The notes below the pieces were generated by a model. That model saw only the letters and a list, made by a program, of their open reading frames with translations. It was not told where the DNA came from and ran no database searches. Made by a program: the position numbers and the translations under genes. A DNA stretch of 64,000 nt from an uncultured Mycoplasmatota bacterium (lineage in GTDB: Bacteria; Bacillota_I; Bacilli_A; RF39; UBA660): contig CAMUZS010000002.1 of assembly GCA_947165285.1 (NCBI GenBank), positions 26,302-90,301 on the forward strand, in the 5' to 3' direction. This document shows positions 1 to 18,363 of this stretch, in pieces; the first letter of the stretch is position 1, and each line of letters opens with the position of its first letter.

Positions 1-172
1 AATCTATAGTACATAAAACAAGAATATATAATTGGTATTAGTATTAAAAAATGCAATAACTTAAATCTATGTACTAAAAAAGCATATGGTTTTCTAATAA
101 TCATTTTACTTTCCCCTATTCTCTTAATTATTATACCATATAACTTTTAAAATAAATTAAAAAAATATATAT

Positions 173-514
173 TTACATTTTTTTATTTACTAATAATTGT
201 CCAGGTAATAAATATATATTTTTATTATTATTTAATAATTGTGTCATATCACAATTAAATTTATCTTTTACTATATCTAAATTATCTCCTTGAGTAGTAA
301 TATAATAACTATATCCACTTTTAGGTATTAATAATTCTTGATCAGTATATATATAATCATCATCATTTAATCCATTTAAAGCTGCTAATAATTTTGGATT
401 AATATTATATTGCTTTGCTATTTGATATAAGTTATCTCCTTTTTTTATTGTATAAATTGTAAAATAATCATCACTACTATTTTTAATATCTTCTAATAAA
501 TTATCATCAAACAT
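173..514 (-). CDS. Small protein with two LysM domains and no signal peptide (candidate spore coat/cortex-associated LysM protein)
   Basis: Two LysM-like repeats: YTIKKGDNLYQIAKQYNINPKLLAALNGL and YYITTQGDNLDIVKDKFNCDMTQLLNNNKNIYLLPGQ. The N-terminus is not hydrophobic. Confidence 0.6.
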   Translation of the reverse strand: MFDDNLLEDIKNSSDDYFTIYTIKKGDNLYQIAKQYNINPKLLAALNGLNDDDYIYTDQELLIPKSGYSYYITTQGDNLDIVKDKFNCDMTQLLNNNKNIYLLPGQLLVNKKM

Positions 515-559
515 AAAAAATCACATCCTATAATAAGATATGATTTAATAAATCTTTTG

Positions 560-1678
560 TTAATAAATAAATATCATATTTTCATTGTTGAAATTCCATT
601 CAAAATATTTCATAACCTTTACTTCACCAATAAAAACATCATAATAATACATTGTATCACCAACTAAATAATAAACATAATTATTATTACTATAAACTAT
701 TTTTTTAATATTATTATTTGATACTAATATTTTAGTATTACTAGTTTTTAAATATAAATTATTATTTTCTATTATATAATTTTGATCATATCCATAATCA
801 AATTTTAAAGTATTATTAACTAATTTATACATCGATATATTTTCCAATTTGTTATTATTTAAAATAACACCGTCTTTAAACTCACTACCAACAGTAATCA
901 TTTTTCTTTTTTTAACATCTAATTCATATTCAATATTATTTTTTCTATCAACAATAAAAATACTATTATCATATGTTCCTAAAATATAACTATTAAATGA
1001 TATTTCAAAATTTAATTCCCATATATCTTGTTTTAAATTATTACAATTTATTATTATTAATTTTTTAAAATTGTATTCACTATCATAATCTGGAATAATA
1101 AGATTATCTTTAAATTTAGTAGCAAGACTTATATTATAATAATCATTTTTAAATAAATTTACTTCCTCTGTTTTATTATTATCAATATAATTAAATCCAT
1201 GATAATTATATATCAAATACTTTTTATCTAAAGTATCATATATATCAATATTATTATAAGATTTATAATTAATATCTCTATTGTTCTTAAAAGAACTTAA
1301 ATCTATATTATCAACTAATCTAAAATCTATATTATTATTATCTTTTATACATAAAGGAATAGAATTTGTATTATTGTAATACAAAACAATACAACTAGTG
1401 TTATCACTATTAAAAGTATCAATACCTTTAATTATTTTTTTACCTATATATTTACTATCAAAATTATAGTCATATTTTTTATCATCTTTAGTTATATTAA
1501 TACTATATCTTTTATCATTATTATTAAATACTTCATTGATTTCATAATCATTATATTTATATTTTTTTTCATGATTTTTTGGAATAATACTATTAATTAT
1601 CAAAAAAATCAATAATATAAGTACAATAATAATTACATAAAATCTTGGTTTAAATCTATATTTCTTCTTTTTGTACAT
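560..1678 (-). CDS. Hypothetical membrane-anchored Asn/Tyr-rich protein
   Basis: N-terminal basic stretch followed by a TM helix (YVIIIVLILLIFLIINSII). The rest is predicted extracytoplasmic and beta-rich. No motif recognised. Confidence 0.5.
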   Translation of the reverse strand: MYKKKKYRFKPRFYVIIIVLILLIFLIINSIIPKNHEKKYKYNDYEINEVFNNNDKRYSINITKDDKKYDYNFDSKYIGKKIIKGIDTFNSDNTSCIVLYYNNTNSIPLCIKDNNNIDFRLVDNIDLSSFKNNRDINYKSYNNIDIYDTLDKKYLIYNYHGFNYIDNNKTEEVNLFKNDYYNISLATKFKDNLIIPDYDSEYNFKKLIIINCNNLKQDIWELNFEISFNSYILGTYDNSIFIVDRKNNIEYELDVKKRKMITVGSEFKDGVILNNNKLENISMYKLVNNTLKFDYGYDQNYIIENNNLYLKTSNTKILVSNNNIKKIVYSNNNYVYYLVGDTMYYYDVFIGEVKVMKYFEWNFNNENMIFIY

Positions 1679-2096
1679 ATTTTCTTTTTTCCCTCATCAT
1701 AAAAGAAGAGATATTAGTTTCTATTTCAGGCAAAGCTTTTTTATCAAGATTAGTAATTGTTACAACTTCTTTAACTGTATCGATAATTACTCTTCCCCAT
1801 ATTAATTCTCTTTGAACTTCCATATCATTAAATAAATCTGGAGTAATACTATTTAAATGATACCCCCAAATTAATCCTTTTCTACCTATTAGTATTCTTT
1901 TATTAGTTAAGCAAACAACGCAAGTATCAAAAATATGCCAAAAAGAATCATTTTTTTGACCAGCAAAAGCATAAATAACATATTCATCAGTATTTAAATG
2001 AATATCGATAACACTACAATGTTTTTTTACTCTCCATGCAATTCCACCATGATATTTTTGCAAATATTTACTTAATGTTTCATATGTATTATTCAT
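1656..2096 (-). CDS. Hypothetical protein, possibly a bacterial PH-like (YokE/bPH-type) domain
   Basis: 146 aa, the length and hydrophobic-core pattern of short bacterial PH-like proteins. This is a weak by-eye call. Confidence 0.3.
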   Translation of the reverse strand: MNNTYETLSKYLQKYHGGIAWRVKKHCSVIDIHLNTDEYVIYAFAGQKNDSFWHIFDTCVVCLTNKRILIGRKGLIWGYHLNSITPDLFNDMEVQRELIWGRVIIDTVKEVVTITNLDKKALPEIETNISSFMMREKRKYVQKEEI

Positions 2097-2117
2097 AATA
2101 ATACCCCGTTTCTATTA

Positions 2118-3356
2118 TTAAAATAAACTTTTTATTATATAAAATATTCCAATTCCTATTCCAACTAATAATGCAACTATTAATAAACCTATTATTACTT
2201 TTGAAAAAGTATTAGATTCTTTTTTCTTAGGTTCAACTTTTATTTTTATTTCAGATACACCTTCAACTTTTTCAATATTTTCTTGTTTTCTAACCTTATA
2301 TTTACAATGAATCATTTGATTCTTATTTAATGCATTTAAATTAATAGATGTTTGAGTCATTGCTAAATCTAATTTACTTTCAGGATATTCTTTAGAATTA
2401 ATATTTTCTAAAGATTTAATAGTTTCAATATTAGTTTTATAATTATTTTTTAATTGATTTGCAATATCTTCTTTTATATTATTATCAATTATTAAATTAA
2501 TGCTTTCCAAATACAAACCATAATTATCAGAAATTCCTCTAGATATCTTTTTAATATATGGATAATATTTATGAAATAATGTAGATAATATAGCATCTTT
2601 ATCTATATAAATATTATTTAAAATATAATAACTTTTTACGTCTAGTTCATTATTAAATGTATACACTGGTGATAACTTTTTAAATTTTGAATTAGTATTC
2701 ATTACAACACTATAATTATTAAATGTTCTATTATAATTATTTGATATTAAATCAAAAAATATCATTTTTATATAATCACTTTTTAATAACTCATATTCAT
2801 CATTATTAAGTCTAAATAAAACATTTAAGGTATTTAAAGTCATTTCAATAGCACTAACTATATCCTTTTCTTTATTTATATACATATTAGGTGAAGTTTT
2901 TGGTAAAGAAAAATAATCTTTTAACCATGAAGTTAATGTAATACCCTTTGATTTTATTAAACTTACTAATTTATTAATTAATATATCAACACTAACTTTT
3001 TGTTCATCTTTTTCTTTAGAATCAACATTTACTATACCATATACATTATTTGAATTAATTACTTTAAATATTTTTGTTGAATTAACATCAAATAAATCAG
3101 CTATTTCAGAATTAATTAATTCTAATTCATCTTTGTAACTATCTATAGATGATTTAATAAATCCTTGATATACTAAATCACTTCCAGTATTTGTATCTAC
3201 ATCTTGTGATTTATTTTCAATAGCTACTTCCACAGCATTATCAACCTTAATTGTTGAATTATTGATTATATTAAATAAAATTTTACTTTTCTTATCTTCA
3301 CCATTAATTTTATCAACTAAATAAAAATCATTAGCTATAAAAAAATCCTTATTCAT
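2118..3356 (-). CDS. Hypothetical C-terminally tail-anchored protein
   Basis: 412 aa with a single C-terminal TM segment (VIIGLLIVALLVGIGIGIFYII) and no N-terminal signal peptide. Confidence 0.5.
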   Translation of the reverse strand: MNKDFFIANDFYLVDKINGEDKKSKILFNIINNSTIKVDNAVEVAIENKSQDVDTNTGSDLVYQGFIKSSIDSYKDELELINSEIADLFDVNSTKIFKVINSNNVYGIVNVDSKEKDEQKVSVDILINKLVSLIKSKGITLTSWLKDYFSLPKTSPNMYINKEKDIVSAIEMTLNTLNVLFRLNNDEYELLKSDYIKMIFFDLISNNYNRTFNNYSVVMNTNSKFKKLSPVYTFNNELDVKSYYILNNIYIDKDAILSTLFHKYYPYIKKISRGISDNYGLYLESINLIIDNNIKEDIANQLKNNYKTNIETIKSLENINSKEYPESKLDLAMTQTSINLNALNKNQMIHCKYKVRKQENIEKVEGVSEIKIKVEPKKKESNTFSKVIIGLLIVALLVGIGIGIFYIIKSLF

Positions 3357-8938: not shown

Positions 8939-9307
8939 ATGAATATTCTTGATATAAATAAAAATATTTTAAAAAAACAAGAAGAAACTCAAACTACTTT
9001 AGAGAATAATGTTGATAAATATATTGACTATTTATTTAAAAAAAATGCAATTACTTATGGTGAACATTTCTATTTAAAGGAAATATTAATCACATATATA
9101 AATTTAAAAAATGAAAAGAAAAATATAATAGAAAACAACATAAATAATGATAATAAATTAAAAGTATTAAATAACTTAATATTTGATTGTGAACAAATAC
9201 TAGATGATTATGAAATAATAAAAAACGTGAAAGAATCTATGCATTCAAATAAAACTAAAGTATTAGCTAAATATAAACCTATTATTGCTTATAACATTAT
9301 AAAGTGA
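8939..9307 (+). CDS. Small hypothetical protein, paralogue A (122 aa)
   Basis: Shares the motif YIDYLFKKNAITYGEHFYLKEILITYINL with the downstream gene. Good RBS and promoter. Confidence 0.6.
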   Translation: MNILDINKNILKKQEETQTTLENNVDKYIDYLFKKNAITYGEHFYLKEILITYINLKNEKKNIIENNINNDNKLKVLNNLIFDCEQILDDYEIIKNVKESMHSNKTKVLAKYKPIIAYNIIK

Positions 9308-9321
9308 TATAATAATTTCCA

Positions 9322-9627
9322 TTGGGGGAAATCCTTATGGAAAAGTTAGAAAAAGTTATCAATGAACAAAGAATATCATATATTAATTCATTATTTAATA
9401 CAGGTGAAATAACTTATGGAGAATGTGAATATTTAAAATTAATACTAAAAAGTTATAATAATCTTATTAGAATGAAAAATGATCTTATATATGAAGATGA
9501 AATAACTAATATGTATAAAATTTATGAAATTGATAACTATTTAAAAATTAGCAGTCAAACATTAAATAAATATAATGTATTAAGAATAGATTATGAATAT
9601 GTTAAAGCATTAAATAAAGCCTTATAA
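9322..9627 (+). CDS. Small hypothetical protein, paralogue B (101 aa)
   Basis: YINSLFNTGEITYGECEYLKLILKSYNNL aligns with paralogue A. The two genes are in tandem and appear to be co-transcribed. Confidence 0.6.
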   Translation: MGEILMEKLEKVINEQRISYINSLFNTGEITYGECEYLKLILKSYNNLIRMKNDLIYEDEITNMYKIYEIDNYLKISSQTLNKYNVLRIDYEYVKALNKAL

Positions 9628-11552: not shown

Positions 11553-12218
11553 TTATTTAGTTCTTAATTTAACAACAGATATGTTATTATCACCATCTTT
11601 TATTAAAGTTACTTCTGCTTCATCATCATATCCTAAATCTTTAACGTATTCAATTTTAAGAAGTACAACATATGATTCTCTCTTATTTTTATTCTTATCT
11701 TTTTTATCTTCATTTTCAATTTCAAAAGTAGATTTTTCTACTTTTTTTACTTCAACATTACTAACTTCAGGTAATTCTTGTTTTCTATCATCATAAGAAT
11801 TATCATGTACTAATTTATAAATAGTATCTAATACTTTAGATCTATGCATATCCCTTTTATCAGAATAAAAATATTGTGTACTAGTTACCTCATATTTATT
11901 AATTTTATAATTAATTGAATATAAATCTATAACAAATAATTTAGCAACTTGTTTAGCTATTTCTTCTTCTTCTGTCATATCTTTTAATTTAGCAAATTCT
12001 TGTTTATAATAATCAGTTACATTATCATTTATTTCATAACCATATTTTTCAATTGAATCATACACATTAGTAACAACAACTTCTTCTTGTTTTTTGATAC
12101 CTTGTACTTTTCCATATATTATAAGAACAATACCTGCGATTACAAATAATAGTATAATTAAAAATATACCTTTCATCCAATCTTTTTTCTTTTGTTTATT
12201 CTTCTTTTTTTCTTCCAT
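11553..12218 (-). CDS. Hypothetical membrane-anchored protein
   Basis: Lys-rich N-terminus, then a TM helix (IFLIILLFVIAGIVLIIY). The extracytoplasmic remainder has no recognisable motif. Confidence 0.5.
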   Translation of the reverse strand: MEEKKKNKQKKKDWMKGIFLIILLFVIAGIVLIIYGKVQGIKKQEEVVVTNVYDSIEKYGYEINDNVTDYYKQEFAKLKDMTEEEEIAKQVAKLFVIDLYSINYKINKYEVTSTQYFYSDKRDMHRSKVLDTIYKLVHDNSYDDRKQELPEVSNVEVKKVEKSTFEIENEDKKDKNKNKRESYVVLLKIEYVKDLGYDDEAEVTLIKDGDNNISVVKLRTK

Positions 12219-12269: not shown

Positions 12270-12302
12270 TTACAAAACAAAAAAAGATAGATAAATCTAT
12301 CT
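12270..12302 (-). terminator. Rho-independent terminator downstream of the TasA-like gene
   Basis: Hairpin agatagat..atctatct (12285-12302), followed on the minus strand by a U-run (plus-strand caaaacaaaaaa). Confidence 0.5.
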
Positions 12303-12313
12303 TATTTTTATAA

Positions 12314-13021
12314 TTAAGCTCCTGTATTTGCAACACTTGTTTGTAATTTAGCTGTAAATGATTTTCCTTGATTTTCATTTTGCTTAATACTAGTTTCTTT
12401 AAATTCAAGTACTAAAATATAATTATCAGTTGAATTAGCATTAATTGTTGCATGAGTTAATTCACCAGCAATAGTTGGAACAGCAGTTTCAGTACCAACA
12501 ATATTAGCAGGATCTACAGAATTTTTATATAATCTGTATACAAAATCATTAGAACCAGATGTAGCAGCAGCTAATTGTTCTGGAGTATAATTTCCTGAAG
12601 CATCTTTTTGAACAGTTATAAATTCATTTGTAAGATCAGTCCAACTAATTGTATAAGTTACTGGAATTGTTGAATTATTAGTAACTGAAATAGCTTTACC
12701 TACAGAATATACTGGAGTAGCATCTTTAGTGTCATCAGCATTACTTTCATTTACACAAGTAGTATCAGATAATCTATAACCACTATCACAAGTATAACTT
12801 GTAATTGTTCTACTAATCCATCCAGGGATAATTCCTGTAGCAGTAATTTGAGGTCCGTCACTATATGCAACAGATAAATTTGCAGTAGTTACAGATGTAG
12901 TTTTAGCTTGTTCATTTCCTTCTACAGTAGCTGTAAAGTAAGCGAAAGTAGTACCAACTACAGCAGTTAATAATGTAGCAATTGCTAATACTGTTAAAAA
13001 TACAACATTCTTCTTTTCCAT
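12314..13021 (-). CDS. Secreted TasA/camelysin-like protein with SipW-cognate-class signal peptide
   Basis: The N-terminus LTVLAIATLLTAVVGTTFAYFTA matches the SipW-cognate signal motif (hydrophobic core then G-T-x-A-Y-F-T). A mature domain of about 200 aa, Thr/Ser-rich and beta-rich, as in the TasA/CalY family. Confidence 0.55.
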   Translation of the reverse strand: MEKKNVVFLTVLAIATLLTAVVGTTFAYFTATVEGNEQAKTTSVTTANLSVAYSDGPQITATGIIPGWISRTITSYTCDSGYRLSDTTCVNESNADDTKDATPVYSVGKAISVTNNSTIPVTYTISWTDLTNEFITVQKDASGNYTPEQLAAATSGSNDFVYRLYKNSVDPANIVGTETAVPTIAGELTHATINANSTDNYILVLEFKETSIKQNENQGKSFTAKLQTSVANTGA

Positions 13022-13171
13022 AATTTTCTCCTCTCTCTATCTTATAAATTAATCATAGCAAAATTATCTATAAACTGCAAGAAATATTTATTTTTTTTTA
13101 TCTTTTTTACAGTTATTATTTATATTATTACTTAAAGTAAAAAAAATATACTATAAAAAAAAAGAATGATA

Positions 13172-14437
13172 TTATTCATTCTTTTCTTCTTTTTTTAAAC
13201 CCTTAATTCTTTTTATTATTTTATTCTTACTTATACCTAACCAAATAACTAATATAATACATATTAATAGTAATACACCTGCTCCGATTAACATATATAA
13301 ATAAAAACTATCATTACTTAGTTCATTGAATAATTCTTCATCAAATACTTGGAATGTTTTATTATTTACATCATATAAATAATATGTTGAATTTCCAGTA
13401 TTTAAATCCATACCATAAATAATATAGTATTTATTTAAATCTTTATATTTAAAAGCAACTATTTCATTACCATCAATATTAATTGTAGTTTTAGTAAATC
13501 CTTTGTATGGAATACTATCAATATCTTGTGGAAAAATATTTAAATTTGATTGTAGTGAAATATATTTAGTATATTTTCCATCATTATATTTAAAGAAATA
13601 TGTATTACCAGATTCATCTTTTAAAGCAATAAGTGTTATATTATTTAATTCATTTTTAAAAGCAGGTACTTCCACTCCATCTATTGTAATTTTTTCTTCA
13701 ACATATCCTTCAGGAATCTCTAGATTTTTACTATTTTTTACAATTGTATAATTTATTCCATTAACACTTACATTTATTGGATTATTATCCTTTACATTAA
13801 CTATAACAACATATGTTTGTTTAGCTCCACTTTCAGCAGTAACAATAATTTCAAATTTATTGCTTCCTTCAACTACTTCTTTTTCTCCATCTCCTTCAAC
13901 TGAAGATTTAGAATCTTTTTTTGTTGTATTAATCTTAACTTTATCAACAGTTGATGGAACTTCTACACTATATTCAAAAATGTCATCACTAAATTCTGGT
14001 GTAAGTTCATATCCTTCTACTTCAATTTTTTTCAAAGTATTAATTGTTGAAGCTGGTGCTGGTTCTCTAACATTAACAGACTTAGAACCTGAAAGATTAA
14101 TTGTACTATATGATGTATCAGTAATATCCCCTGATAAGGTAAATGCTATAGTTCCTAAAGATGATGCTTTACAAGTTGTTGAAAAAGTCTTTGTTCCATT
14201 CTCTCCATTTTCATTCTCGCCAGACCATTCATTACTACATCCATATGTATTACCAGATGATATAATTTTTATATGCCAAGATCCAGCATTTCTAATAGTA
14301 ACTGATGCAGTTACACTTTTACCATTTTCAATTGATGCTGATGAAACATTAAACGAATATGAGGGTGCTGCACTAACAATTAAACTAAAGCATCCCATAC
14401 ATATCACACTAAATAATAAATATTTTAATTTTTTCAT
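13172..14437 (-). CDS. Surface protein with signal peptide, cadherin-like beta-sandwich-type domain and C-terminal TM anchor
   Basis: Signal peptide MKKLKYLLFSVICMGCFSLIVSAA. The segment LKKIEVEGYELTPEFSDDIFEYSVEVP...KFEIIVTAESGAKQTYVVIVNV resembles the bacterial cadherin-like domain pattern. C-terminal TM helix LIGAGVLLLICIILVIWL. Confidence 0.45.
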   Translation of the reverse strand: MKKLKYLLFSVICMGCFSLIVSAAPSYSFNVSSASIENGKSVTASVTIRNAGSWHIKIISSGNTYGCSNEWSGENENGENGTKTFSTTCKASSLGTIAFTLSGDITDTSYSTINLSGSKSVNVREPAPASTINTLKKIEVEGYELTPEFSDDIFEYSVEVPSTVDKVKINTTKKDSKSSVEGDGEKEVVEGSNKFEIIVTAESGAKQTYVVIVNVKDNNPINVSVNGINYTIVKNSKNLEIPEGYVEEKITIDGVEVPAFKNELNNITLIALKDESGNTYFFKYNDGKYTKYISLQSNLNIFPQDIDSIPYKGFTKTTINIDGNEIVAFKYKDLNKYYIIYGMDLNTGNSTYYLYDVNNKTFQVFDEELFNELSNDSFYLYMLIGAGVLLLICIILVIWLGISKNKIIKRIKGLKKEEKNE

Positions 14438-14453
14438 AAATCATAACTCCTTT

Positions 14454-16175
14454 TTATTTTTGACTAATATTATCCTTATTTAATAAAAATCTTCGCAATT
14501 TTAATAAATTAGCAGAGTTCACATCATCACCATTCATTATTTTTGCAGATTCCATAAATGCTCCAGACAAATTATCCTTACCAATTAAATATCTTCTCAT
14601 TTTCAAAAGATCAGCAGAATTTATTTGACCATCTCCAGTTAAATCACCATAAACTACAACAGTATAAGATGTACCATTAGCAAATGTAATAGTTTGTCCT
14701 GTCTTAATTAAACCATCACCATTTATTTGAATAGATGAATCTTTAGATTTTATTTCATCTATACTAGCACCTATTTCAAAACCTCTAATAAATCCTTCTT
14801 TTATAGAACCACCTATATTACTTACAGCTGAAGATATTTCTGAAGATGAAGAATTGTTTTCACTACTTCCATTATAAGTATATGTTGCACATATTGTACA
14901 TAGACCACCACTTGCATAAACTAGTCCAGCTTTAACAGGATTTTCTGCAGACGATGATGCACCTATATTATAAAAATTAAATAATCCTGAATAAGTAGTT
15001 CCCTTATATTCAAATTGTTGTCCTGTTGTATTAAACTCACCTATTTCTTGAACAGATAAAGATGCTAGATAAACAGGATTAACATTTGCATTTTTTCCTG
15101 CTTCTAAAAATATTGAAGAATAAGATTGATTATCAATAAAATCCATTCCACTTATATAACTTTTTCTATTCAATACCCCTTGAATAACACTTTCAGGTAT
15201 ATCAATATATGACAAATTTTCAAACATAAATACATAAGATTCATTTAAAAAATTTCTTGGATCTAAATAATAAGCAGTTGTTGCTTGATTAGGTTTATAC
15301 CATCCCTTTTCACCAGTTCCAATTGCATTTCCTTCACTACATTCAACTAAAGCACAATCAGTACTTTGAATTGCACCAGTTTCTTTAAATACAGCTGAAG
15401 CTTCTTCGATAGTAAGACCTGTTTTCATCGGAGTAAATGTCCAATTATCATGTTCTTGATGTAACTGTCTTAGATATGGTTTATAACTATCTGGAAAATC
15501 CTTAATCATATTTTCAAATGCATCATCTGTTTTATCAGTAGTTCCTAAGTTTGCTTTCTTTCCTCTTGGATGAGCATATTCACCTGCCATATTTTCATAC
15601 ACAGGAATTGAAAAACTAAAAGGTAAATTAAATGATCCATTTTTATAATAAGAAGTAGATGAAGATACAGCCTCAGTAGATGGTGCAGTAATATTAGATT
15701 GATATAAATGAGAATAAATAGAATAATGTCCATTTGGATTAACATTAAATTTTTTTAAATAAGAAGTAAATTGACCTTTTGCAATATATCCATTAGCTAT
15801 CCATTTAGCTCCACCAACGATTGCCTTTTTAGGAGTATTCCATGGTCTATCATATGGATTATCTAAAGATTGAGTTGTTATATATTTAGAACAAATATAT
15901 CCCTCTTTTGAATTATAACTTACCTTTAACCAACCATCATCACAACCTTCACCAGAAACTTTTTTATCATCAATAACAGTTACTTTAGTATTAGTATTTA
16001 AAGTATCTAAAATATCACTATTTTTAGTACTAGGATTTTGTCTAAATCTAACTCCATCAGTAGAAACTCTTGCTTCATATGATGCAGCCTTAACATTAAT
16101 TGGTACAACAAATAAAGAACAGAAAGTTAGAGAAATAATCATAATAATAGTAAATGCTTTTTTTATCTTAACCAT
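14454..16175 (-). CDS. Secreted SH3b-domain protein with central putative GH73-like glycosidase region and C-terminal type-I dockerin
   Basis: Signal peptide, then an SH3b-like segment (YEARVSTDGVRFRQNPS...GWLKVSYNSKEGYICSKYI). The C-terminus has two dockerin Ca-binding repeats (DLTGDGQINSADLLKMRRYLIG; NGDDVNSANLLKLRRFLLNK). The central region weakly resembles N-acetylglucosaminidase (LASLSVQEIG...GLFNFYNIGA). Confidence 0.55.
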   Translation of the reverse strand: MVKIKKAFTIIMIISLTFCSLFVVPINVKAASYEARVSTDGVRFRQNPSTKNSDILDTLNTNTKVTVIDDKKVSGEGCDDGWLKVSYNSKEGYICSKYITTQSLDNPYDRPWNTPKKAIVGGAKWIANGYIAKGQFTSYLKKFNVNPNGHYSIYSHLYQSNITAPSTEAVSSSTSYYKNGSFNLPFSFSIPVYENMAGEYAHPRGKKANLGTTDKTDDAFENMIKDFPDSYKPYLRQLHQEHDNWTFTPMKTGLTIEEASAVFKETGAIQSTDCALVECSEGNAIGTGEKGWYKPNQATTAYYLDPRNFLNESYVFMFENLSYIDIPESVIQGVLNRKSYISGMDFIDNQSYSSIFLEAGKNANVNPVYLASLSVQEIGEFNTTGQQFEYKGTTYSGLFNFYNIGASSSAENPVKAGLVYASGGLCTICATYTYNGSSENNSSSSEISSAVSNIGGSIKEGFIRGFEIGASIDEIKSKDSSIQINGDGLIKTGQTITFANGTSYTVVVYGDLTGDGQINSADLLKMRRYLIGKDNLSGAFMESAKIMNGDDVNSANLLKLRRFLLNKDNISQK

Positions 16176-16326
16176 TTTTCCAACTTCCTTTCATATTCCT
16201 TTAAATTATAACATAATTTTTAATATGTGTAAAACATATTGTAAATTATATATGTAAAGACTATACAAAAAAATTCCTTGTTTATTATTAAAACTTATAA
16301 TATAATATTCTAAGATAAAAGAGGTT

Positions 16327-18363
16327 ATGATAATGAAAGCATTTGTACATAAATTAAAGAAATCAAATAAAGTATTTTTATCACTTTATTTAATATCCTT
16401 AATAACATATATTGTTTTTTATAGTATTTTTACAATAAATATACTTCATTTAAGCAATATTGAAACAGGAATTAGAATAGTATTACTAGTATTTTTTGGA
16501 CTATGGTTATTAATGTGGTTTATAACTGGATTAGTATTCTTATTTACTAAAAAATATAAAAAAATGATTATTTTAATAGTATTTACACTAATTTTTTCTG
16601 GAATATTTGGAGTAAGTAGTTATTATATAAATAAAATATATCAAACAGTAGATGGTATGAGTAAAGACAAAGTTGTATATACATCAAATTTAATAACATT
16701 AAAAGATTCTAATTTTGACAGTAATAGTAAAATAGGAATGATTAATGATTCTAATGACGTTGAAGGTTTTGTATTAGGAAATAAATTAATTAAGAATAAT
16801 TCATTAACTAATGAAATAAATAGATATGATGACTACTTAATAATGCTTAATGATTTATATACTAAAAAAATTGATGCTGCTGTTGTATCAGGAAATTATA
16901 TTATAAACTTTTCATCTGAAGAACAATTTGAAAATATAGAAAAAGAAACTAAAATAGTTTATACACTATCTGAAGAAATGAAAAATCAAGATAATGTATC
17001 GTATACAAACAAAAAATTAACTGAACCATTTACAGTACTTTTAATGGGTGTTGATTCAGAAAATGATGGACTTAATGCTAATCAAGCATTTAATGGAGAT
17101 ACATTAATGTTAATTACTTTTAATCCTAAAACATTAACAGCTAGTGTGTTCTCAATTCCAAGAGATACATTTGTTCCAATAGCATGTAGAAACGGAGCAT
17201 ATGCAAAAATAAATTCCGCAGCTGCATCTGGTACAAATTGTGTAATTAATACAATTAAAAATCTTACTGATATAGATATAGATTTTTATGTTAAGATTAA
17301 TTTCAAAGGTGTTGTAGATTTAGTTAATACAATAGGTGGAATTACAGTAGATGTAGAAAAGCCTTACTTTAGATATAATAATGGTATAGATTATCATGGA
17401 CAAGTTTGTGAACAAAATTCAAATCGTGATTTTGGTAACAGTACTGTTTGTATAGATCCAGGAGTACAAAGATTAAACGGTGAACAAGCTTTAGCTTATT
17501 CAAGAAATAGACATCAATATATTGGATCAGATTTAGATAGAGTAAAACATCAACAACAAGTAATAACAGCCTTAGCAAATGAAGTTAAAAATCTTTCATC
17601 ATTTGAACAATTTGAAGGAATTTTAAATGCAGTTGAAAAAAATATGGATACTAATATGAAAAATGAACAAATATTATCACTATATAATGTTGCTAAAAAA
17701 ATAGCATTAACTGCATTAAGTGGAAAAACAGATGAAATAGTTTCAATTAATCATACATATTTAGAAACTTATTCTCTTCCTGTATGGATAGGATATTCTA
17801 GAACATCCGCTTTAGGATATTATAAAGATTCATTAAATGATATAGTTAAAATGATGAAAATTAATCTTGAATTAGAAGAAGAAAAAATAACTAAAAATTA
17901 TGAAATTGATTATAATGAAAACTATGAATCAAAATATTATGGAGAAAAAATTAGATCAAATCAAGTACAAATACTAATGCCTAATTTAATAGGAAAATCT
18001 AAAGAAGAAGCAAGTAATTGGATTACTTCACAAGGAAAAACACCATCAATTAAATATGTTTCCCCTGGTGAAGCTCATTACAATTCTAGTGTAGGAAGTG
18101 GAGTTGTAGCTGATCAAGATATTCATATAGATTCATTAATAAATAATGTAGGAACTATAACAATCTATGTTAATGAAGGAAAAACAAATGTTATATCAGA
18201 AACAATAATAAATAATACAAACACTAATCAAGAAGATAAAAAAGAAGAAACTACTAGTAACGAAGTTCAAAAACAAGAAACTAAGACAGAAGAAAAAAAG
18301 GAAGAACAAAATAAAGAAACTGAAAATAAAGAATCTGAAAGCAAAGAAGATAATAAAGAATAA
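16327..18363 (+). CDS. LytR-CpsA-Psr (LCP) family glycopolymer-peptidoglycan ligase with N-terminal TM helices, a PASTA-like C-terminal module and acidic tail
   Basis: LCP core: LLMGVDSENDG...GDTLMLITFNP...SIPRDTFVPIA...AKINSAAASG. The later segment VQILMPNLIGKSKEEASNWITSQGKTPSIKYVSPGE...GVVADQD...GTITIYV fits the PASTA pattern. The tail is E/K-rich low complexity. Confidence 0.75.
   Translation: MIMKAFVHKLKKSNKVFLSLYLISLITYIVFYSIFTINILHLSNIETGIRIVLLVFFGLWLLMWFITGLVFLFTKKYKKMIILIVFTLIFSGIFGVSSYYINKIYQTVDGMSKDKVVYTSNLITLKDSNFDSNSKIGMINDSNDVEGFVLGNKLIKNNSLTNEINRYDDYLIMLNDLYTKKIDAAVVSGNYIINFSSEEQFENIEKETKIVYTLSEEMKNQDNVSYTNKKLTEPFTVLLMGVDSENDGLNANQAFNGDTLMLITFNPKTLTASVFSIPRDTFVPIACRNGAYAKINSAAASGTNCVINTIKNLTDIDIDFYVKINFKGVVDLVNTIGGITVDVEKPYFRYNNGIDYHGQVCEQNSNRDFGNSTVCIDPGVQRLNGEQALAYSRNRHQYIGSDLDRVKHQQQVITALANEVKNLSSFEQFEGILNAVEKNMDTNMKNEQILSLYNVAKKIALTALSGKTDEIVSINHTYLETYSLPVWIGYSRTSALGYYKDSLNDIVKMMKINLELEEEKITKNYEIDYNENYESKYYGEKIRSNQVQILMPNLIGKSKEEASNWITSQGKTPSIKYVSPGEAHYNSSVGSGVVADQDIHIDSLINNVGTITIYVNEGKTNVISETIINNTNTNQEDKKEETTSNEVQKQETKTEEKKEEQNKETENKESESKEDNKE

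Follow-up and report, generated by a model that had tools for sequence, protein, structure and literature searches.

A divergent TasA-family gene beside a probable cohesin-dockerin-tethered autolysin in an uncultured low-GC bacterium

Results

The DNA analysed here (the window) is a stretch of 64,000 nt from an uncultured Mycoplasmatota bacterium (assembly GCA_947165285.1, contig CAMUZS010000002.1, positions 26,302-90,301) with a guanine plus cytosine (GC) content of 23.6%. The subject is a row of three minus-strand open reading frames (ORFs) encoding a dockerin-bearing wall hydrolase of 573 amino acids (aa; 14454-16175), a cadherin-like membrane protein of 421 aa (13172-14437) and a TasA-like protein of 235 aa (12314-13021). 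All three were recovered as originally predicted, with gaps of 16 bp between the first two and 150 bp between the last two, and each protein does begin with a signal peptide, visible as a single N-terminal hydrophobic segment behind a basic n-region. The original prediction took the three genes for one operon-like unit that may encode an extracellular fibre or adhesion apparatus with an attached wall hydrolase. I consider it likely, instead, that they form two neighbouring cell-envelope modules, each transcribed on its own, in an uncultured gut organism of the Bacilli type that has a wall and a very low GC content: a tethered autolysin (module A, the 573-aa and 421-aa genes) and a TasA-type fibre subunit (module B, the 235-aa gene).

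Candidate transcription signals divide the row in two. The best promoter-like site of the region lies 5' of the 573-aa gene (16205-16233, minus strand; TTTACA-17-TATAAT with TG, 11 of 12 consensus matches). It is a candidate promoter for module A by consensus match only and, together with the 16-bp gap, fits co-transcription of the 573-aa and 421-aa genes. The 421-aa gene has its stop codon within a hairpin that a U-run follows (13155-13190, minus strand; free energy (dG) -14.2 kcal/mol, z -3.6), a candidate terminator for module A. The 150-bp spacer beyond it holds what appear to be the promoter and leader of the TasA-like gene (13022-13081, minus strand), consisting of cTTGCAG (13080-13075), a 17-nt spacer, TGcTATGAT (-10 at 13057-13052) and the leader ATAGAGAGAGGAG, which includes a ribosome-binding site. 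The TTG, TATnAT and ATAGAGAGG blocks are invariant in five genomes, namely the window and the related loci L084, L005, L006 and L017 (here and below, L numbers label related loci from comparison genomes), and the gene 5' of them differs in most, being the tsaD region, a gene for a 682-aa protein or a gene on the opposite strand. Finally, an AT-rich hairpin with a U-run lies 3' of the TasA-like gene (12273-12311, minus strand; dG -9.9, z -3.1), in agreement with the intrinsic terminator that had been predicted after the last gene, and an equivalent hairpin and T-run is found 3' of the L084 orthologue. A consensus terminator scan, which requires 3 G-C pairs, overlooked both AT-rich hairpins of the window, and these were folded directly.

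The same division is seen in gene order. The context of module A was compared in five loci (L084, L085, L086, L087 and L089) and that of module B in four (L005, L006, L017 and L084). The dockerin enzyme and the cadherin-like membrane protein are encoded side by side in all five, with gaps of 8-20 bp, and a TasA-like gene follows them in L084 only, with none in L085, L086, L087 or L089. The TasA-like gene is followed by a homologue of a 221-aa membrane protein (59-66% identity) and a convergent radical-SAM gene in four of four loci, and in L005, L006 and L017 it and the 221-aa homologue occur without module A. Both modules are together only in the window and L084, and apart in the seven other loci.

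The hairpin after the 421-aa gene and the conserved promoter and leader of the TasA-like gene thus argue that the three genes are not one operon. The row has a candidate terminator and promoter inside it and is not conserved as a block, and sequence comparison suggests two independent modules in a lineage-specific juxtaposition. The competing view, that the genes form an operon for an integrated surface apparatus in which the TasA-like fibre works with or carries the dockerin hydrolase, has in its favour that all three are adjacent on the same strand, and that L084 keeps the same four-gene order (dockerin enzyme, cadherin-like protein, TasA-like protein, ~210-aa protein) at only 37-62% protein identity, so that the juxtaposition has lasted some time. 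It also gains from two points that weigh against a strict separation: the promoter and terminator calls are sequence predictions only, and the terminator stems, being AT-rich, may leak, which would make read-through from the 421-aa gene into the TasA-like gene possible. Even so, an integrated apparatus is quite unlikely, given that the promoter and leader of the TasA-like gene are conserved whatever gene lies upstream, that the dockerin pair has no TasA-like neighbour in four of its five loci and the TasA-like/221-aa pair no dockerin pair in three of four, and that in orthologues the second gene already supplies the dockerin with a partner of the cohesin type (see below). Neither the operon-like unit of three genes nor the joint fibre and hydrolase apparatus of the original prediction was upheld by these comparisons.

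The 573-aa protein had been described as a putative glycosidase with dockerin and SH3b domains, and it can now be classified as a secreted GH73 wall enzyme, that is, a peptidoglycan N-acetylglucosaminidase. Behind a signal peptide (residues 1-30) it comprises an SH3b domain (40-99; SH3_3, E 3.8e-11), the GH73 domain, a Ser-rich linker and a type I dockerin (509-565). The dockerin matches Dockerin_1 (PF00404) at 27.1 bits (cutoff 22.9) and dockerins in the PDB at 1e-4, and contains two Ca-binding repeats, DLTGDGQINSADLLKMRRYL and NGDDVNSANLLKLRRFL. GH73 similarity is evident from matches to the SagB model (6.5e-12), to AtlE (4pi7, E 1.1e-8) and to 6fxp and 6u0o (about 1e-6), with the predicted catalytic residue Glu377 (SVQEIG) aligned to the Glu of the AtlE motif LVETG. 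The Pfam model Glucosaminidase (PF01832) gave no match to this protein, probably because its lobes are in permuted order. AtlE is matched as two swapped segments (residues 110-150 to AtlE 151-192, and 320-421 to AtlE 53-148). Likewise, BLAST places residues 209-424 on residues 26-239 of the L089 orthologue and 108-215 on its residues 247-353, and the L089 protein is itself collinear with Atl (101-296 vs 33-214) and with AtlE. These alignments indicate a circular permutation of the GH73 domain in the window enzyme, with the C-lobe (108-215) before the N-lobe (209-424). The permuted order recurs in L084, L086 and L087, and the canonical order is found in L085 and L089. A search confined to one literature library found no paper on GH73 together with circular permutation.

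The 421-aa protein is a type I membrane protein and the probable tether of this enzyme. Its description as a cadherin-like surface protein was borne out (Cadherin-like, 32.5 bits, cutoff 24.2), and an AlphaFold2 model (predicted local distance difference test 88) has four beta domains on a transmembrane helix, the second of them cadherin-like. From the N-terminus, the parts are a signal peptide (residues 1-23), a domain that is probably cohesin-derived (24-125), the cadherin-like domain (133-217), two beta domains (220-365), the transmembrane helix (376-409) and a basic, Lys-rich tail. The case for a cohesin origin comes from distant orthologues: P0210 and P0230 contain a bona fide cohesin (residues 34-120; Pfam, 27.6 and 28.5 bits, cutoff 24.1), which also matches PDB cohesins at 1.4e-7, and hhalign joins the window-type and the cohesin-type N-domain over ~100 columns (Prob 52-63%, E 7e-5 to 1.5e-4). 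The window domain is shortened and has a conserved Cys pair. Because orthologues have a cohesin at the same position, and because the partner gene keeps a clear dockerin in every locus examined, I infer that the N-domain is a shortened cohesin derivative that would still dock the enzyme. Two results count against this. Searched alone, residues 24-125 gave no cohesin (PF00963) match in Pfam or the PDB, and Foldseek with the whole 421-aa model returned mostly generic tandem immunoglobulin-like arrays, with a cohesin dyad at rank 39 only. On balance, binding of the dockerin by residues 24-125 is about an even proposition, and the support for Ca2+-dependent binding as such is the invariant adjacency of the two genes described above (five of five loci).

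The 235-aa protein was originally predicted to belong to the TasA/camelysin family and to carry a SipW-type signal. The first point is supported, transitively through homologues, and the signal is probably of the SipW type. Taken by itself the protein argues against the assignment: PF12389 (Peptidase_M73/camelysin) stays below its cutoff (18.7 bits vs 22.5; E 1.6e-3), TIGR04090 (BsaA, SipW-dependent) reaches 13.6 bits against a cutoff of 60 and does so through the signal region (residues 13-42), and TIGR04088 was not reported in the NCBIfam profile search, so that the profile searches that had been proposed gave no direct match to TIGR04088 or M73 above cutoff. The homologues are more informative. 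A database search that collected matches via shared 5-residue words found 222 of them, many with PF12389 and one named 'TasA family protein' by NCBI, and 38 were aligned. PF12389 is matched by 25 of these 38 at E<=1e-3 (best 1e-8), and the NCBIfam models matched are TIGR04090 (10 homologues), NF046066 (TasA; 4) and TIGR04088 (2, at E<0.01). A word-free profile search extends the family to at least 5,415 cluster representatives, and five of ten members sampled from the lower part of the profile-search list exceed the PF12389 gathering score. By these sequence comparisons the link of the 235-aa protein to the TasA/camelysin family is solid. Scanning species-representative genomes yielded 330 relatives, the best match having 39% identity. 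Nearly all of them are in uncultured gut metagenome-assembled genomes that carry the labels Bacilli, 'Tenericutes', 'Mycoplasma sp. CAG', Coprobacillus sp. CAG:605 or Erysipelotrichaceae.

The modelled structure of the 235-aa protein has the TasA-type fold, a jelly-roll beta-sandwich (residues 51-230), and its best fold match is the fibre form of TasA. Matches to the PDB at large are weak: Foldseek ranks AbpA first (7UEG, E 8e-3, TM 0.23), and a sequence profile of the homologues reaches TasA at E about 0.5 only. An insertion of ~35 residues (residues ~70-108, with Cys78 and Cys89) adds extra beta hairpins to the sandwich; it is confidently modelled and is present in the four closest homologues only.

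The motif VVGTTFAYFT occupies residues 21-30. SipW cleaves the signal peptide off TasA, whose donor strand consists of residues 28-38 (PMC9674648). By analogy, residues 1-27 would be a SipW-type signal cleaved after Ala27, between GTTFA and YFT, and the conserved YFTATV segment would be the donor strand, within a predicted donor-strand region (28-~45) that is disordered in the monomer model (unstructured at residues 23-44). Across the 38 homologues, 17 of the first 29 residues are invariant and the mature parts are about 30-50% identical. Collection by 5-residue words could partly shape this pattern in the first homologue set, but the N-terminal invariance is real, since the syntenic orthologues and the word-free profile search show it too. 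The four syntenic orthologues have 30-33 of 33 N-terminal residues identical, with 8-12 synonymous differences in those codons, and 35-46% identity with many indels in the mature part. Synonymous change in a near-invariant N-terminus, set against a divergent mature part, points to strong purifying selection on the signal/donor-strand region; the exposed domain appears to diverge fast while the N-terminus stays fixed. The near-invariant stretch (codons 1-33, 12923-13021) also spans the n- and h-regions of the presumed signal peptide.

If the 235-aa protein is processed in the manner of TasA, a SipW-type (S26B) peptidase should exist. The reported absence of sipW from the window was confirmed: neither motif searches nor tblastn nor hmmsearch found an S26/SipW-type peptidase in these 64 kb. 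To that extent the searches, which covered the window, have shown no sipW for the source genome, and this speaks against SipW-dependent processing. Relatives suggest where the gene may lie. In a neighbourhood survey of 83 TasA-like loci, 46 have, on the same strand and 1-6 kb downstream, a protein with SGSMEP, THR and GDNN motifs. Five such peptidases were examined, and they pass TIGR02228 at 86-104 bits (cutoff 51.85) and match the SipW model at 64-104 bits; the best match of the S26B peptidases of related loci is the SipW model, and their catalytic Ser, His and Asp are invariant. A SipW-like profile search built from 32 sequences found at least 5,681 cluster representatives.

The TasA-like and SipW genes of relatives belong to a cluster of about nine genes with a recurrent order: bPH_3, F7 (~372 aa), LysM, F3 (~530 aa, polytopic), a TasA-like gene (~220 aa), a gene for a 400-740-aa protein with a TasA-like N-terminus, SipW, F6 and F8 (F numbers denote protein families). 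The first half of this canonical cluster lies at the left end of the window (1-3356, minus strand), as F19 (2118-3356, 412 aa), bPH_3 (1656-2096), F7 (560-1678, 372 aa), LysM (173-514) and, cut by the edge, the N-terminus of F3, of which bases 104-3 encode the first 34 codons (MIIRKPYAFLVHRFKLLHFLILIPIIY...), with 70% identity to the L001 protein. Of 20 loci with F3, 19 have a TasA-like gene within the next 3 kb, and wherever the downstream DNA extends for at least 5.7 kb (14 loci), a SipW-type peptidase starts 2.3-8.7 kb past the end of F3. Because the left edge of the window falls inside a cluster that carries sipW in 14 of 14 informative loci, sipW is predicted just off the window, and a genome without any SipW is unlikely. 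My best estimate is that the gene lies about 4-10 kb beyond window coordinate 1 and, correspondingly, that the 235-aa gene would encode an additional, 'orphan' subunit at a distance of about 12 kb from that cluster.

Some further features of these clusters were seen in passing. The SipW-type peptidases (at least 5,681 database clusters; in the survey, L001:17849-18778, L004:13930-14910 and those of 44 other loci) are nearly all without a precomputed Pfam match though TIGR02228 is passed, an annotation gap, and many of those in this lineage have a long Lys/Glu-rich C-terminal tail behind the second transmembrane helix. In L006, a gene for a 256-aa protein with the motif GLSLGFAAFSTTL (L006:1199-1969) adjoins one for a 379-aa protein in which a polytopic membrane domain is fused to an S26B peptidase domain (L006:2020-3159); this pair may be a second SipW-type system in a close relative. 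In L020, L025, L039, L066, L076 and others, the gene after the small TasA-like gene encodes a protein of 400-2189 aa with the same N-terminus, a full TasA-like domain and extra C-terminal domains, and these proteins are candidate TapA-like nucleators or tip adhesins.

A TasA fold need not mean SipW-dependent fibres. The 235-aa protein could instead be cut by a general signal peptidase or stay anchored by its helix, and serve as a monomer on the cell surface or in the spore coat, or as a camelysin-like protease. The lack of sipW in the window would fit this, as would the Pfam name of the family (a metallopeptidase) and an N-terminal helix conserved over its full length to an extreme degree, which one would not usually expect of a signal peptide that is thrown away; moreover AbpA, an archaeal TasA-like donor-strand pilin, is processed by a generic peptidase and has no dedicated peptidase gene adjoining it (PMC9245690). 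The protease version, however, was rejected because the protein has a single His and no HExxH, and hence no zinc site. Against the remainder stand the GTTFA/YFT context, which fits TasA/CalY cleavage, the linkage of SipW-type genes to the family in the survey, a region at residues 23-44 that is unstructured in the monomer model, as expected of a donor strand, and a best fold match to the TasA fibre form. A non-fibre protein is therefore an unlikely reading, and a SipW-processed fibre subunit is preferred.

The TasA-like gene was also correctly noted to be locally GC-richer, with a GC of 0.308, the second highest among 48 genes, where the mean for genes of the window is 0.239 (z 1.5). The horizontal acquisition that was read from this can draw, in addition, on the contrast between the mature domain (35-46% identity to syntenic orthologues) and its neighbours (59-87%). 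The excess, though, lies at codon position 2 (GC 0.468) and reflects a high content of Thr, Ala, Ser and Gly in the protein; given its amino-acid composition and the codon preferences of the whole window, a GC of 0.315 would be expected. GC at the third codon position is 0.051, the lowest of the 48 genes, and synonymous-codon usage is typical (z -0.3). Furthermore, the gene is syntenic, along with its promoter, leader and downstream partner, in L005, L006, L017 and L084, no mobile-element scars were seen flanking it, and diversifying selection on a surface protein accounts better for its fast divergence. Low third-position GC, a GC expected from composition and conserved synteny all argue against recent horizontal acquisition, which was rejected as very improbable; the gene looks native.

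Beyond the three genes, the 221-aa protein encoded 3' of the TasA-like gene (11553-12218, minus strand; orthologues in L005, L006, L017 and L084) is an N-terminally anchored membrane protein and a conserved partner with no relative in Pfam, NCBIfam or the PDB. Divergent from module A lies a gene for an LCP (LytR-CpsA-Psr) glycopolymer ligase with a PASTA domain (16327-18363, plus strand), and such a gene is also divergent from the dockerin pair in L084, L085 and L086. Within the 421-aa gene there is an antisense ORF (13860-14483, plus strand; 207 aa, Ser/Leu-rich), most likely a shadow ORF. Elsewhere, two tandem small paralogous ORFs (8939-9307 and 9322-9627, plus strand; 122 and 101 aa) occupy a stretch of 17-19% GC; they have motifs of the YGEHFYLKEIL and YGECEYLKLIL type, and no known family was assigned to them.

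Discussion

What might these two modules do? Module A (16175-13172) would supply a Sec-secreted peptidoglycan N-acetylglucosaminidase with SH3b, GH73 and type I dockerin domains, together with a type I membrane protein whose cohesin-descended N-domain is held distal to the membrane on a stalk of the cadherin-like and two other beta domains. The dockerin would bind this N-terminal domain in a Ca2+-dependent manner, and would in this way keep the autolysin attached to the cell that makes it, a set distance away from the membrane, where it could remodel the wall or help cells to separate. Such a role fits the position of module A beside the LCP-PASTA wall-glycopolymer ligase.

Module B (13081-12273) would be transcribed as a single gene, which encodes a TasA-family subunit. 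If processing follows that of TasA and CalY, a signal peptidase of the SipW type (S26B) would cut after Ala27, freeing an N-terminus that begins YFTATV, and the freed strand would enter the beta-sandwich of the next subunit (donor-strand exchange), building extracellular fibres. The peptidase and the probable nucleator or adhesin paralogues would come from the canonical cluster, of which the first five genes are in the window (1-3356) and the rest would be past its left edge. The 221-aa membrane protein, as a conserved partner, may serve as an anchor or assembly aid.

Set beside known systems, the TasA-like gene is a divergent addition to the TasA/SipW fibre family, and its neighbour is an autolysin that is probably tethered by a cohesin-dockerin pair; both vary known themes. 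In Bacillus biofilms, TasA-type fibres form the main protein scaffold, and clostridia and archaea are now known to have homologues. The 235-aa protein has about 14% identity to Bacillus subtilis TasA (tapA-sipW-tasA; PDB 5OF1, 8AUR) and is below the Pfam and NCBIfam cutoffs. Unlike tasA, its gene has no adjacent sipW, is apparently monocistronic and has the 221-aa membrane partner instead of tapA; the cluster of this lineage has other accessory genes (bPH_3, LysM and the ~530-aa polytopic protein), and the 33 N-terminal residues are nearly invariant. With B. cereus CalY/camelysin and Clostridium perfringens BsaA (TIGR04090) the window protein has the Pfam family PF12389 in common, and TIGR04090 is the NCBIfam model that its homologues match most often (10 of 38). 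The CalY motif, of the GGTFAYFS type, is almost identical to GTTFAYFT. The window protein nevertheless differs from CalY and BsaA in its sub-threshold match, its lack of HExxH and its host, an uncultured low-GC gut lineage, and neither isopeptide cross-links nor protease activity are indicated for it. AbpA (PDB 7UEG) resembles it in having no dedicated peptidase gene adjacent, although the structural match between them is weak.

Module A resembles the cohesin-dockerin pairs of cellulosomal scaffoldins and of C. perfringens NagJ in its type I dockerin, with two symmetric Ca-binding repeats on the enzyme, and in a neighbouring gene for a surface-anchored protein with a bona fide cohesin in orthologues. 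It differs in that the enzyme is a peptidoglycan hydrolase, not a plant-polysaccharide enzyme, that one enzyme is paired with one anchor, that the anchor is a C-terminal transmembrane helix rather than SLH or sortase, and that the N-domain itself is not recognisable as a cohesin. From the GH73 autolysins AtlE, Atl and SagB (PDB 4PI7, 6FXO, 6U0O), to which it is similar in both lobes and the catalytic Glu, the window enzyme is set apart by its C-terminal dockerin; its lobes are also swapped relative to AtlE and to the L085 and L089 orthologues. Its SH3b wall-binding module is of a kind found in many autolysins.

A more speculative interpretation, and one that I would call doubtful as a whole, brings these pieces together. 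The near-invariant 33-residue N-terminus common to the small TasA-like subunits and their paralogues of 400-2000 aa, along with the cluster of about nine genes, could represent a dedicated SipW-dependent system of pilus or fibre assembly, one peculiar to uncultured low-GC gut Bacilli (labelled Bacilli, Tenericutes or 'Mycoplasma sp. CAG' in the records). The 'signal peptide' would then be a recognition element for the machinery of the lineage, and fast-evolving orphan subunits, such as that of the window, would be used by this one machinery as antigenically variable major subunits. Module A next to it would, separately, amount to a pared-down cohesin-dockerin system outside cellulosomes, in which a circularly permuted GH73 autolysin is fastened to a stalk in the membrane.

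These findings leave current knowledge in place; they are useful for annotation and as testable hypotheses about an uncultured lineage. The TasA-like and SipW-like families are large and mostly unannotated, and their conserved cluster in uncultured, small-genome gut Bacilli points to a way in which these bacteria could build surface fibres or attach in the gut. The permuted enzyme and its orthologues of canonical order provide a natural case of circular permutation inside a single GH73 family. Finally, module A suggests cohesin-dockerin pairing outside cellulosomes, used to hold an autolysin on the cell's own surface.

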